Shown here: piece after piece, positions 50,649 through 62,413 of the stretch
Position numbering within the stretch: the stretch's first letter is position 1
Layout: each line of letters opens with the position of its first letter
Assembly (NCBI RefSeq): GCF_003018115.1
Contig: NZ_CP027457.1
Reading direction: 5' to 3' (one strand)
Length of the DNA stretch: 64,000 nt
Source: Escherichia coli
GTDB taxonomy: Bacteria > Pseudomonadota > Gammaproteobacteria > Enterobacterales > Enterobacteriaceae
The notes under the pieces: generated by a model
The model's database searches: none
What the model was told of the DNA's origin: nothing
The model's input: the letters and a program-made list of their open reading frames with translations, nothing else
Position numbers and translations under genes: made by a program

Positions 50649-51458
50649 ATGCTTTTTGATGTTTTTCAGCAATACCCCGCGGCGATGCCCATACTGGCTA
50701 CCGTCGGAGGATTAATCATCGGTAGTTTTTTGAATGTGGTGATTTGGCGTTACCCCATCATGCTGCGCCAACAAATGGCGGAGTTTCACGGTGAAATGCC
50801 GAGTGCGCAGTCAAAAATAAGCCTGGCGCTGCCACGCTCGCACTGTCCGCATTGCCAGCAGACTATCCGCGTTCGTGACAATATTCCGCTGCTCTCCTGG
50901 CTGATGCTCAAAGGTCGCTGCCGCGATTGTCAGGCGAAAATCAGCAAGCGTTATCCGCTGGTGGAGTTATTGACAGCACTCGCTTTTTTGCTGGCGAGTC
51001 TGGTCTGGCCAGAAAGTGGATGGGGGCTGGCGGTGATGATATTATCCGCCTGGCTGATTGCCGCGAGCGTCATCGACCTCGATCACCAATGGCTGCCCGA
51101 TGTTTTCACTCAGGGCGTATTGTGGACAGGGCTGATTGCGGCATGGGCGCAACAGAGTCCGCTCACGCTACAAGATGCAGTCACCGGCGTCCTGGTGGGA
51201 TTTATCACTTTTTACTCGCTGCGCTGGATAGCCGGAATAGTTCTGCGTAAAGAAGCATTAGGCATGGGCGATGTATTATTGTTCGCTGCTTTAGGTGGCT
51301 GGGTGGGGGCGTTGTCGCTGCCCAATGTTGCTTTAATCGCATCATGCTGCGGCCTGATATATGCCGTTATTACAAAAAGAGGATCAACCACACTGCCTTT
51401 TGGACCGTGTTTAAGTCTGGGCGGTATAGCAACACTTTATCTACAGGCATTGTTTTAA
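50649..51458 (+). CDS. pppA: prepilin peptidase (type IV leader peptidase/N-methyltransferase)
   Basis: ORF trimmed to ATG at 50649 ([10 protein letters not shown]...) giving 269 aa; Cys-tetrad CPHC...CRDC; the upstream ORF extension runs through the REP array and is rejected. Confidence 0.85.
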
Positions 51459-51523
51459 TGATAACCACGTCATTATCGAAGTGACATTTTAACTCTTATT
51501 AATAACCTTAGAGATTATTTACC

Positions 51524-51934
51524 ATGTCGATAAAACAGATGCCAGGGAGGGTATTAATATCGCTATTGTTGAGCGTTACAGGATTATTAAGTGGCTGCGC
51601 CAGCCATAATGAAAACGCCAGTTTACTGGCGAAAAAACAGGCGCAAAATATCAGCCAAAACCTGCCGATTAAATCTGCGGGATATACCTTAGTGCTGGCG
51701 CAAAGTAGCGGCACGACGGTAAAAATGACCATTATCAGCGAAGCGGGTGCTCAGACCACGCAGACGCCTGATGCCTTTTTAACCAGCTATCAACGACAAA
51801 TGTGCGCTGACCCGACGGTGAAATTAATGATCACCGAGGGAATTAATTACAGCATAACGATTAATGATACACGTACAGGTAACCAGTATCAGCGGAAACT
51901 GGATCGCACTACCTGTGGAATAGTCAAAGCATAA
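51524..51934 (+). CDS. yghG: T2SS-beta pilotin lipoprotein (AspS/GspS-beta)
   Basis: 136 aa; lipobox LLSGC; position between pppA and gspC. Confidence 0.8.
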   Translation: MSIKQMPGRVLISLLLSVTGLLSGCASHNENASLLAKKQAQNISQNLPIKSAGYTLVLAQSSGTTVKMTIISEAGAQTTQTPDAFLTSYQRQMCADPTVKLMITEGINYSITINDTRTGNQYQRKLDRTTCGIVKA

Positions 51935-52080
51935 CGTCGGGTAGATATAAATTGGCGCGGGTTGTTTTTCGTGACGCACGAATTTATCTCATTCAGTGGC
52001 TGACAAAAATTCGTCACACTCTTAGCCAGAGACAATCTCTTAATACAGACCAAGAGCATCTGCGCAAAATTGCTCGCGGG

Positions 52081-52911
52081 ATGTTCTGGCTGATGCTGCT
52101 TATTATTTCTGCAAAAATGGCGTATTCACTCTGGCGCTATTTCTCCTTTTCTGCGGAATATACGGCGGTTTCTCAATCGGTGAATAAACCGACCCGTGCG
52201 GATGCAAAAGCGTTCGATAAAAATGACGTGCAATTAATCAGCCAGCAAAACTGGTTTGGCAAATATCATCCCGTCGCCGCACCGGTAAAACAACCCGAAC
52301 CTGCACCTGTGGCCGAAACGCGTCTTAATGTGGTGCTGCGCGGGATCGCCTTTGGTGCCAGACCCGGCGCGGTTATTGAAGAAGGTGGCAAACAGCAGGT
52401 CTATTTGCAGGGTGAAACGCTGGGCTCGCACAACGCAGTGATTGAGGAAATCAACCGCGACCATGTGATGCTGCGCTATCAGGGAAAAATAGAGCGTCTG
52501 AGTCTGGCTGAAGAGGAGCGTTCCACGGTTGCTGTGACCCGCCAAAAAGCCATCAGTGACGAAGCAAAGCAAGCTGTTGCTGAACCTGCTGTCAGTGCGC
52601 CAGTTGAGATCCCGACTGCCGTGCGTCAGGCACTGGCGAAAGATCCGCAGAAAATTTTTAACTATATCCAGCTTACGCCTGTGCGTAAGGAGGGAATTGT
52701 CGGTTATGCAGTGAAGCCGGGGGCAGATCGTTCTCTGTTCGATGCCAGCGGTTTCAAGGAAGGCGATATCGCCATTGCGCTAAATCAGCAGGATTTCACT
52801 GATCCACGAGCAATGATTGCTCTGATGCGGCAGTTACCTTCAATGGATTCCATTCAACTTACGGTTTTACGCAAGGGTGCGCGCCACGACATTTCCATCG
52901 CGCTGCGCTAA
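52081..52911 (+). CDS. gspC: type II secretion system protein C
   Basis: ORF with N-terminal TM segment; start codon uncertain (ORF open from 51952; first ATG at 52081). Confidence 0.7.
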   Translation: MFWLMLLIISAKMAYSLWRYFSFSAEYTAVSQSVNKPTRADAKAFDKNDVQLISQQNWFGKYHPVAAPVKQPEPAPVAETRLNVVLRGIAFGARPGAVIEEGGKQQVYLQGETLGSHNAVIEEINRDHVMLRYQGKIERLSLAEEERSTVAVTRQKAISDEAKQAVAEPAVSAPVEIPTAVRQALAKDPQKIFNYIQLTPVRKEGIVGYAVKPGADRSLFDASGFKEGDIAIALNQQDFTDPRAMIALMRQLPSMDSIQLTVLRKGARHDISIALR

Positions 52912-60700: not shown

Positions 60701-60705
60701 GTTCC

Positions 60706-61875
60706 ATGCTTGAGATTTTTTTCCCGCTTTGCGCCTCCGACACCATCCGCTGGCAGCGCCGTACACCCGACGTGGAGCACGGTATCTGGCCTGACGTTGC
60801 TGACGAACGTCTCCAGCAATGGCTGCAAACTGATGCGATTCGACTCTACATTCCTGGCGAATGGATCAGCGTCTGGCAGGTTGAACTGCCTGATGTTGCC
60901 CGCAAGCAGATACCGACTATTCTGCCTGCCTTATTGGAAGAAGAGCTGAATCAGGATATCGACGAACTGCATTTCGCCCTGTTGAAAATCGACCAGCAAC
61001 AGGCAACCGTGGCAGTGATTCACCAGCAGCATATGCACAACATTGCGCAGTGGTTGCAGGAAAACGGTATCACCCGCGCTACCGTCGCGCCGGACTGGAT
61101 GTCTATTCCGTGTGGCTATATGGCTGGCGATGCGCAACGGGTTATCTGCCGCATCAATGAGTGCCGGGGATGGAGCGCCGGGTGGGCGCTGGCTCCGGTC
61201 ATGTTCCGCGCACAGCTCAATGAGCAGGACTTACCGATTTCACTAACCGTGGTCGGCATTGCACCGGAAGAACTATCTGCATGGGCTGGTGCGGACGCCG
61301 AACGCCTGACCGTTACGGCTCTGCCAGCCATTACCACTTATGGTGAACCGGAAGGGAACCTGCTAACAGGGCCGTGGCAGCCTCGCGTCAGCTACCGAAA
61401 ACAGTGGGCGCGCTGGCGGGTGATGATTCTGCCGATATTGCTGATTCTGGTTGCGCTGGCAGTGGAACGGGGCGTGACGTTATGGAGCGTCAGCGAACAG
61501 GTGGCGCAAAGCCGCACCCAGGCGGAAAAACAGTTCTTAACACTGTTCCCGGAGCAGAAGCGGATTGTGAACTTACGCTCTCAGGTGACGATGGCGCTGA
61601 AAAAATATCGCCCGCAGGCCGACGATACCCGGCTGCTCGCCGAGTTGTCAGCGATAGCCAGCACCCTGAAATCAGCGTCACTTTCCGACATCGAAATGCG
61701 TGGTTTCACCTTTGATCAAAAACGCCAGACGCTTCACCTCCAGTTGCGGGCAGCAAACTTTGCCAGCTTCGACAAACTGCGTAGTGCACTGGCAACCGAT
61801 TATGTTGTGCAACAGGACGCGTTACAGAAAGAGGGTGATGCGGTTTCCGGCGGCGTAACGTTGCGGAGGAAATAA
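60706..61875 (+). CDS. gspL: type II secretion system protein L
   Basis: ATG at 60706 (MLEIFFPLCASD...) preceded by GAGTGAG; ~389 aa. Confidence 0.88.
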   Translation: MLEIFFPLCASDTIRWQRRTPDVEHGIWPDVADERLQQWLQTDAIRLYIPGEWISVWQVELPDVARKQIPTILPALLEEELNQDIDELHFALLKIDQQQATVAVIHQQHMHNIAQWLQENGITRATVAPDWMSIPCGYMAGDAQRVICRINECRGWSAGWALAPVMFRAQLNEQDLPISLTVVGIAPEELSAWAGADAERLTVTALPAITTYGEPEGNLLTGPWQPRVSYRKQWARWRVMILPILLILVALAVERGVTLWSVSEQVAQSRTQAEKQFLTLFPEQKRIVNLRSQVTMALKKYRPQADDTRLLAELSAIASTLKSASLSDIEMRGFTFDQKRQTLHLQLRAANFASFDKLRSALATDYVVQQDALQKEGDAVSGGVTLRRK

Positions 61876-61876
61876 C

Positions 61877-62413
61877 ATGTTACGCGATAAATTTATTCAC
61901 TATTTTCAGCAATGGCGTGAACGCCAGTTAAGCCGTGGCGAACACTGGCTGGCACAACACCTGGCGGGGCGTTCTCCGCGTGAAAAGGGCATGTTACTGG
62001 CAGCGGTGGTGTTCCTGTTTAGCGTCGGATATTACGTTCTCTTCTGGCAGCCGTTGAGCGAACGGATAGAACAACAGGAGACGATGTTGCAGCAGCTGGT
62101 GGCAATGAACACCCGACTGAAGCGCGCCGCGCCGGATATTATCGCAGCGCGAAAATCCGCCACGACAGCACCTGCGCAGGTATCGCGGGTCATCAGTGAC
62201 AGTGCTTCCGCGCACTCGGTGGTCATCAAGCGGATAGCCGAGCGTGGGGAGAATATTCAGGTCTGGATAGAACCTGTGGTGTTTAATGACCTGCTGAAAT
62301 GGTTAAACGCACTGGATGAAAAATATGCGCTGCGGGTGACACAAATTGATGTCAGTGCTGCTGAGAAGCCTGGGATGGTGAATGTGCAGCGGCTGGAGTT
62401 TGGACGGGGGTAA
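61877..62413 (+). CDS. gspM: type II secretion system protein M
   Basis: 178 aa; single TM; last gene of operon. Confidence 0.9.
   Translation: MLRDKFIHYFQQWRERQLSRGEHWLAQHLAGRSPREKGMLLAAVVFLFSVGYYVLFWQPLSERIEQQETMLQQLVAMNTRLKRAAPDIIAARKSATTAPAQVSRVISDSASAHSVVIKRIAERGENIQVWIEPVVFNDLLKWLNALDEKYALRVTQIDVSAAEKPGMVNVQRLEFGRG

Follow-up and report, generated by a model that had tools for sequence, protein, structure and literature searches.

Described T2SS-beta loci and related systems

The T2SS-beta cluster of Escherichia coli is already known. In ETEC, sslE and the 13 genes downstream of it form one mRNA that is repressed by H-NS/StpA, and Fis is an activator of the sslE promoter in UTI89, an ExPEC strain (PMC5012682). 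Secretion of SslE requires gspC-M and pppA in E. coli W (PMC3707838), a non-pathogenic strain with a complete T2SS-beta cluster, and has been shown for the orthologues in W, E2348/69, and H10407 (PMC3707838; Dunstan et al.).

The stretch of DNA analyzed here (the window, 64,000 nt of E. coli contig NZ_CP027457.1) very probably carries, as judged from its sequence, an intact chromosomal T2SS-beta with the substrate gene sslE upstream and the pheV site empty. No sequence evidence against an intact T2SS-beta was found. ETEC H10407 shares all 14 genes (yghJ/sslE-pppA-yghG-gspCDEFGHIJKLM) together with their order, their lengths, and the left neighbor glcA, and the two loci were 96.4% identical in nucleotides over 12.1 kb with 2 gaps (approximately 3.6% diverged). 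E. coli KO11FL, which we take to be a derivative of E. coli W, has gspK-L-M-pheV-yqgA contiguous and an empty pheV site, at 96.1% nucleotide identity (approximately 4% divergence).

When GspD of the window was compared with secretin structures, the scores were 1382 bits for 5zdh_A (ETEC beta), 731 bits for 5wq8 (V. cholerae), and 545 bits for 5wq7 (K-12 alpha). The Eps T2SS of Vibrio cholerae has a secretin of the same class, its pilotin is of the same fold family (4ftf; PF16549), and its AcfD belongs with SslE to the lipoprotein metalloprotease family NF037974, in a different genus. The genes for the Vibrio pilotin and AcfD are not part of the eps operon, and type IV pili use the same prepilin peptidase. 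The T2SS-alpha of E. coli (gspAB / gspC-O, chitinase secretion) has the same general machinery, but its secretin is Klebsiella-type, an AspS-type pilotin is lacking, and the locus is elsewhere on the chromosome, outside the window.

Gene content and integrity of the cluster

In the ORF listing, 13 consecutive + strand frames extended from the pppA start at 50649 to the gspM stop at 62413, followed by a hairpin:

50649..51458, +, pppA, prepilin peptidase / N-methyltransferase; Pfam PF06750 (4e-34) and PF01478 (2e-24)
51524..51934, +, gspS-beta (yghG/aspS), outer-membrane pilotin lipoprotein; PF16549 T2SSS_2 (8e-17)
51952..52911, +, gspC, inner-membrane platform-secretin linker; NF007242, 729 bits (cut-off 561), covering 1-319/319
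52941..55001, +, gspD, Vibrio-type (beta) secretin; TIGR02517, 553 bits (cut-off 351)
55001..56494, +, gspE, cytoplasmic secretion ATPase; TIGR02533, 707 bits (cut-off 630)
56494..57717, +, gspF, inner-membrane platform protein; TIGR02120, 490 bits (cut-off 424), full length
57734..58189, +, gspG, major pseudopilin; TIGR01710, 192 bits (cut-off 89), leader PRAG/FTLLE
58193..58756, +, gspH, minor pseudopilin; TIGR01708, 189 bits (cut-off 80), leader G/FTLLE
58753..59124, +, gspI, minor pseudopilin; TIGR01707, 90 bits (cut-off 44), leader G/FTLLE
59121..59726, +, gspJ, minor pseudopilin; TIGR01711, 177 bits (cut-off 65), leader G/FTLLE
59723..60700, +, gspK, tip-complex minor pseudopilin; NF037980, 283 bits (cut-off 130)
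60697..61875, +, gspL, inner-membrane GspE anchor; TIGR01709, 180 bits (cut-off 65)
61877..62413, +, gspM (yghD); NF007274, 405 bits (cut-off 352), covering 1-178/178
62439..62468, +, 14-bp hairpin, 26 nt past the gspM stop; spacer RNA fold z = -3.66

All 13 frames were checked and none contained an internal stop. The intergenic spacing was -4 to +65 nt, with 6 junctions overlapping by 1 or 4 nt. The frames of the core T2SS set are collinear, and they are intact and tightly coupled, as a sequence-only reading of the same DNA had described them. The same genes are annotated at identical coordinates in the closest RefSeq genome, GF3-3 (99.5% nucleotide identity), and the glcA-sslE-pppA-...-yghD-pheV-yqgA synteny matches annotated RefSeq genomes. 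The limits assigned in the sequence-only reading, pppA to gspM, are exact for the machinery genes but leave out sslE, at which the transcription unit begins in the published ETEC account. The hairpin past gspM is a possible 3' end or stabilizer of the operon transcript.

The 11 products GspC-M and SslE exceeded the curated NCBIfam equivalog cut-offs, with profile coverage essentially end to end except for GspL (392 aa, as in H10407). For PppA and GspS-beta, no NCBIfam family was obtained at 1e-5; this is a gap in the library, and both were resolved with Pfam and PDB. PppA (96.7% aa identity to H10407, equal length) has the motifs CPHC, CRDC, DLD (DxD), and GMGD (GxGD), and with its Pfam A24 peptidase domains and GspC-M the T2SS core is complete. 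GspE has a Walker A motif and two CxxC pairs, CPAC among them. The leader GFTLLE, previously ascribed to all five pseudopilins, was found in GspG, GspH, GspI, and GspJ, but the GspK leader is KRG/MALVVVL, with no Glu at +5; matches to TIGR02532 were also obtained.

GspS-beta (lipobox LSGC) matched PDB 5zdh chain P (1e-68) and V. cholerae AspS 4ftf (1e-6), and GspD was 99.7% identical to H10407 GspD-beta in aa. The cluster is assigned to the beta type on its AspS-type pilotin and on a secretin for which 5zdh, the ETEC GspD-beta/GspS complex, is the nearest match. Further T2SS-beta features are the position of the pilotin gene inside the operon, between pppA and gspC, and that of the locus between glcA and pheV, with sslE directly upstream.

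In the gene-by-gene comparison with ETEC H10407, which the sequence-only reading had proposed, all genes were intact and collinear. The gsp genes had no frameshifts or premature stops, and the machinery proteins were 93.4-99.8% identical in aa and equal in length, apart from GspJ, the C-terminus of which is 2 aa longer than in H10407. The dN/dS values against H10407 were 0.008-0.30 across the 13 machinery genes (0.008 for gspE; sslE being excluded because its alleles have offsetting indels and were compared without a codon alignment), and indicate purifying selection.

The locus and its flanks are shared with K-12, as is the empty pheV junction (at 99.6% over 551 nt, one K-12 strain), but K-12 is without window positions ~52915-60910 (7,996 bp), a stretch that takes in gspD-K and the 5' part of gspL. 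One end of the deletion is at the gspC stop, the other falls within gspL, and approximately 5 nt are common at the join; the leftover GspC has a 12-aa tail, and GspL is without its N-terminal 106 aa (yghE, a 286-aa remnant). The earlier statement that K-12 holds only the remnants yghD-F was correct for these three (yghD, 5'-truncated yghE, and yghF) and incomplete, as yghG, pppA, and yghJ are also kept. The deletions here in K-12 and many other strains are the sole prior for regarding the cluster in the window as a pseudogenized remnant, complete in appearance only. With no internal stops or frameshifts, and with products of full length against both the curated NCBIfam profiles and H10407, that reading is refuted and scarcely conceivable. 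The segment deleted in K-12 (gspD-K) was held by 3257 of the 5426 complete E. coli genomes (60%).

The pheV site and the origin of the block

To the right of the cluster, two features were found:

62525..62553, -, pheV intrinsic terminator; terminator scan, 12 pairs and then a T-run
62562..62637, -, pheV, tRNA-Phe(GAA); ARAGORN, Rfam 68 bits

Rfam gave no match beyond tRNA-Phe. The spacer from the gspM stop to pheV measured 148 nt, in keeping with the approximately 150 bp given earlier, and the T2SS cluster lies 3' of pheV, the side that receives islands. P4-type GI-pheV islands use the 3'-terminal 23 nt of pheV (62562-62584, TTCGATTCCGAGTCCGGGCACCA) as their attB core, and their 23-bp direct repeat has been described (PMC11537424). 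The core is unoccupied, and the pheV attachment site is empty in this strain. H10407, in contrast, has a 73-kb GI-pheV between gspM and pheV (PMC11537424); homology to H10407 stops exactly at 62584, at the 23-nt repeat, where the island follows.

The sequence-only reading had also found no integrase or island at pheV, and this was confirmed: the 148-nt spacer holds hairpins only, with no intP4 integrase 3' of pheV; the 23-nt pheV 3' end, which would recur as an attR, occurred only once in the window at ≤3 mismatches; and GF3-3, collinear over the whole 64 kb, has no integrase annotated there. The surprise that it attached to the empty site was not warranted. The gspM-pheV-yqgA junction is uninterrupted in 1529/5426 complete E. 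coli genomes (28%), K-12 included, so the absence of an island is unsurprising. The stretch from gspK to yqgA is contiguous in 1077 of these genomes (20%), and an intact T2SS-beta beside an empty pheV is thus ordinary, found in approximately 1 in 5 complete E. coli genomes. As the site is free, the strain is without pheV-borne virulence islands, which are most prevalent in pathogen-associated phylogroups (PMC11537424).

It is possible, although doubtful, that the sslE-T2SS-beta block is itself a decayed ancient island at the pheV 3' end, a fixed horizontal acquisition with later islands nesting between the block and pheV. The location of the block on the island-receiving side is consistent with this, as are a GC content of 0.55-0.60 over gspD-L versus ~0.49-0.52 in the pheV/yqgA flank and sslE, the Vibrio-type secretin and pilotin, the description of the system as acquired by Dunstan et al., and the absence or deletion of the segment in ~40% of genomes. 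However, the 62.5 kb on that side contain no integrase, mobility gene, or second pheV 3' repeat (≤3 mismatches), the left neighbor glcA keeps its place in K-12, H10407, and GF3-3, and the loss in K-12 is an internal deletion and not an excision (own comparison; PMC3707838).

sslE, its flanking regions, and the predicted secretion

Upstream of the machinery genes, the following were assigned, the first directly after the glcA terminator hairpin (45286-45316):

45317..45762, +, AT-rich regulatory region from the glcA terminator to the sslE start; GC 0.42 over 45000-45999
45763..50322, +, sslE (yghJ), lipoprotein zinc metalloprotease (mucinase); NF037973 SslE
50324..50632, no strand, REP/BIME array between sslE and pppA, including a 133-nt tandem duplication; sequence comparison

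SslE scored 3478 bits against NF037973 (cut-off 3000, covering 1-1519/1519), has a lipobox LAGC at residue 21 and HEVGH (HExxH) at 1303, and matched PDB 23px over the full length. Its identity to the H10407 protein was 88.9% in aa; for an allele this diverged, recognition by the machinery is presumed.

The sslE-pppA spacer is 326 nt here versus 197 nt in K-12 and H10407, and the matched span varied between 274 and 471 nt among the genomes compared; a coverage count of genomes having the 133-nt duplication is confounded, since both copies in the query can align to a single subject copy. A 353-aa ORF (50397-51458) considered as the pppA frame was rejected as an artefact: its first 84 codons are REP read-through, and both the RefSeq annotation and H10407 begin at 50649. 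The array could stabilize the sslE part of the transcript or partly terminate read-through into pppA-gspM. That this polymorphic array tunes the substrate:machinery ratio or, as a second possibility, that the sslE-gsp block in its entirety represents a fossil pheV island, is unlikely. If such tuning were real, the array copy number would set secretion capacity between lineages.

The operon promoter, and with it control by H-NS/StpA/Fis, is expected in the region 45317..45762. The promoter has been mapped in H10407 and UTI89 (PMC5012682) and is non-consensus in published accounts. A crude consensus scan, uninformative when negative, gave no sigma-70-like + strand promoter upstream of either sslE or pppA. 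This null result, the AT-rich 5' region (a documented H-NS/StpA target in ETEC; PMC5012682), and the dependence of SslE secretion on temperature and medium in E. coli W (PMC3707838) would fit an operon that is intact but effectively cryptic, being H-NS/StpA-silenced or otherwise unexpressed, with no contribution under normal conditions. Such silence is distinctly unlikely: the low dN/dS values of all 13 genes against a strain ~3.6% diverged in nucleotides point to continuing selection for function, and SslE was secreted by 18/18 sslE/T2SS-positive clinical UPEC isolates examined (PMC5012682).

For an intact and expressed T2SS-beta, the steps of secretion can be proposed by analogy with homologues. 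A promoter in the AT-rich region ahead of sslE probably drives the machinery genes together with sslE. The leaders of GspG to GspK, the pseudopilins, would be cleaved and methylated by PppA. GspD, the Vibrio-type secretin, would be bound at its S-domain by the lipoprotein pilotin GspS-beta/AspS and brought by it to the outer membrane. On an inner-membrane platform presumably made of GspC, F, L, and M, the GspE ATPase would drive assembly of a GspG pseudopilus with a GspH-I-J-K tip, which would push folded periplasmic SslE (in ETEC, heat-labile toxin too) through the secretin.

The importance of the cluster beyond annotation is small. An older account gave the Vibrio-type system to only 'a few' E. 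coli strains; the genome counts bring this up to date and leave the biology unchanged. Judging by its gene content, the strain is probably able to secrete SslE, a mucinase known as a colonization factor and vaccine candidate.

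Layout and integrity of the T2SS-beta cluster

A continuous series of plus-strand ORFs was found at 45745-62413 in a six-frame listing. The ORF limits matched the RefSeq annotation of E. coli GF3-3, the closest RefSeq genome (99.5% identity over 45000-64000), and the previously proposed cluster coordinates were right, with pppA starting at 50649 and gspM stopping at 62413.

Genes of the cluster and its substrate gene
45763-50322, plus, sslE
50649-51458, plus, pppA
51524-51934, plus, gspS-beta (yghG/aspS)
51952-52911, plus, gspC
52941-55001, plus, gspD
55001-56494, plus, gspE
56494-57717, plus, gspF
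57734-58189, plus, gspG
58193-58756, plus, gspH
58753-59124, plus, gspI
59121-59726, plus, gspJ
59723-60700, plus, gspK
60697-61875, plus, gspL
61877-62413, plus, gspM (yghD)

Intergenic distances from gspS to gspM were -4 to +29 nt, including 1-nt overlaps (gspD/gspE and gspE/gspF) and 4-nt overlaps (gspH/I, gspI/J, gspJ/K, and gspK/L). A 19-codon ORF, VKRLAFLIKGETTHFDVGK, is antisense within gspL (61678-61737, minus strand) and is the counterpart of YqhJ, a small protein of K-12 (b4786; 17 of 19 residues identical).

GspC, D, E, F, G, H, I, J, K, L, and M, as well as SslE, scored above the curated NCBIfam cut-offs, with profiles covered essentially end to end except in GspL (profile positions 42-391 of 392). 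The NCBIfam search gave no match for PppA or GspS-beta; in Pfam, PppA matched both A24 peptidase domains and GspS-beta matched the T2SS pilotin family (PF16549). Every expected motif was present: Walker A (GPTGSGKS) and two CxxC pairs in GspE, CPHC, CRDC, DLD, and GMGD in PppA, HEVGH in SslE, and lipoboxes in SslE (LAGC) and GspS-beta (LSGC). Of the five pseudopilins credited with GFTLLE leaders, four have them (G/FTLLE in GspG, GspH, GspI, and GspJ); the GspK leader is KRG/MALVV, without Glu+5, which is normal for the GspK family.

The locus of the ETEC reference strain H10407 was retrieved and compared gene by gene with the window. Protein lengths were equal except for two additional C-terminal residues in the window GspJ, no internal stops were present in the window genes, and machinery identity ranged from 93.4% (GspC) to 99.8% (GspE). 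The dN/dS values of the 13 machinery genes relative to H10407 (0.008-0.30, Nei-Gojobori) indicate purifying selection. The description of the gsp genes as intact therefore stood: neither frameshifts nor premature stops, named as evidence against it, were found against H10407.

The whole window was collinear with GF3-3 (guinea fowl, Gambia; 99.46%), and O169:H41 ETEC strains had similar identity to it. Of 5426 complete RefSeq genomes, none matched 45000-64000 exactly (best 99.5%). Mismatches were patchy, with 0 to 32 in each 2-kb bin, a pattern suggestive of a recombination mosaic. Judged by its collinearity with both GF3-3 and H10407, ~24400-34300 is the yghQ-yghS neighbourhood, with genes for serine palmitoyltransferase (spt), ACP, fatty acyl-AMP ligase, and epimerase, as well as additional genes that carry the annotations lptF and lptG. 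The GF3-3 annotation marks gpr (L-glyceraldehyde 3-phosphate reductase; ~8750-9790, minus strand) as a pseudogene that contains an internal stop.

System class, expression, and predicted secretion

The secretin GspD best matched the cryo-EM ETEC GspD-GspS complex (5zdh, 1382 bits), followed by the V. cholerae secretin (5wq8, 731 bits), versus 545 bits for the K-12 alpha secretin (5wq7). GspS-beta matched chain P of 5zdh and AspS of V. cholerae (4ftf). By sequence, the system belongs to the class with a Vibrio-type secretin and AspS pilotin defined by Dunstan et al. (PMC3542185), named T2SS-beta by Strozen et al. (as cited in PMC3707838).

In ETEC, sslE is cotranscribed with the 13 genes downstream of it, and H-NS/StpA repress this single mRNA at low temperature; in UTI89 (ExPEC), the sslE promoter is activated by Fis (PMC5012682). 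The 446 nt preceding the window sslE are AT-rich (GC 0.42), as in the published case. Placing the 13 genes at 50649-62413 was correct; the operon start was not, as the published ETEC transcript begins at sslE (PMC5012682).

PppA is needed for secretion in W and H10407 (PMC3707838), and AspS binds the secretin S-domain and directs the secretin to the outer membrane (PMC3542185). From these orthologues we infer that in the window strain PppA would be required for secretion and AspS would target the secretin to the outer membrane. Under the standard T2SS model, GspC/F/L/M would form the platform, GspE would be the ATPase, and GspG would build a pseudopilus with GspH-K at its tip.

The K-12 deletion and sslE divergence

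The K-12 reference MG1655 is annotated in the order pheV, yghD, yghE, yghF, yghG, pppA, yghJ, glcA. In BLAST, the window aligned to it in three blocks (45000-50494, 50460-52914, and 60911-64000). Since alignment ends at 52914 and resumes at 60911, K-12 lacks ~52915-60910 (7,996 bp; gspD through gspK plus ~214 nt at the 5' end of gspL), with about 5 nt common to both sides of the join. The deletion leaves K-12 GspC with a 12-aa tail and GspL without 106 N-terminal residues. The same edge was seen in other genomes (matches starting at query base 812, window 60911), and the K-12 deletion has been described (PMC3707838). The sequence-only reading gave yghD-F as the only K-12 remnants; yghJ, pppA, and yghG are kept as well.

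SslE stood apart from the machinery proteins: its aa identity was 88.9% with H10407 and 90.6% with K-12, and nucleotide identity was about 90-91% for sslE versus about 96% for the gsp genes. Distinct SslE allele groups exist, and the divergence fits these, or diversifying selection or recombination on a surface-exposed substrate.

The sslE-pppA spacer (50323-50648) consists of a REP/BIME array in which 133 nt are tandemly duplicated (units 50324-50424 and 50457-50557, 92% identical). The spacer measures 326 nt, versus 197 nt in both K-12 and H10407. Across E. coli genomes, the spans matched by the spacer query ranged between 274 and 471 nt; REP/BIME copy number is therefore polymorphic. The pppA ORF also had 84 additional N-terminal codons, which were rejected as a spurious product of the array.

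The pheV site and its frequency

The spacer between gspM and the 3' end of pheV is 148 nt long, in agreement with the earlier estimate of about 150 bp.

Features between gspM and pheV, and the tRNA
62439-62468, 14-bp hairpin in the spacer
62525-62553, minus, pheV terminator in the spacer
62562-62637, minus, tRNA-Phe(GAA), pheV (ARAGORN, Rfam)

GI-pheV islands insert at the pheV 3' end, start with a P4-type integrase, and are usually closed by a repeat of the tRNA 3' end, 19 or 23 bp long (PMC11537424). The spacer held nothing beyond the hairpin and terminator, the pheV 23-mer TGGTGCCCGGACTCGGAATCGAA had no second copy within the 64-kb window at up to 3 mismatches, and the GF3-3 annotation, collinear with the whole 64 kb, contained no integrase. 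These observations bear out the claim that no integrase or island is inserted; judged from the window itself, the site is an unoccupied attB.

In contrast, H10407 is homologous to the window only as far as 62584, precisely 23 nt inside pheV; CP4-like genes, IS66 elements, and fragments of autotransporter genes come next. The break fits the 73-kb H10407 GI-pheV and attR listed in PMC11537424. In several genomes (e.g., ST95-32, its name suggesting ST95), homology ended at 62412, essentially the gspM stop codon and not the 23-nt repeat (matches spanning 1-2313). Such an end points to islands or rearrangements by which attR and the spacer were lost, and fits the 'no direct repeat' class of PMC11537424.

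Among 5426 complete E. coli genomes, used for all frequency counts, 3257 (60%) had 80% or more of the 8-kb segment that K-12 lacks, and the gspM-pheV-yqgA junction was uninterrupted in 1529 (28%). Contiguity from gspK through yqgA, marking the 3' end of an undeleted cluster with an empty pheV site, was found in 1077 (20%), including KO11FL, a W derivative. The published GI-pheV prevalence is 52%, by a stricter integrase-based criterion (PMC11537424). Overall, the observation was confirmed and its interpretation supported, with three minor corrections. T2SS-beta genes adjoin pheV, a hypervariable locus, and have been lost repeatedly (PMC3707838); the arrangement is common, and every aspect of it is already in the literature.
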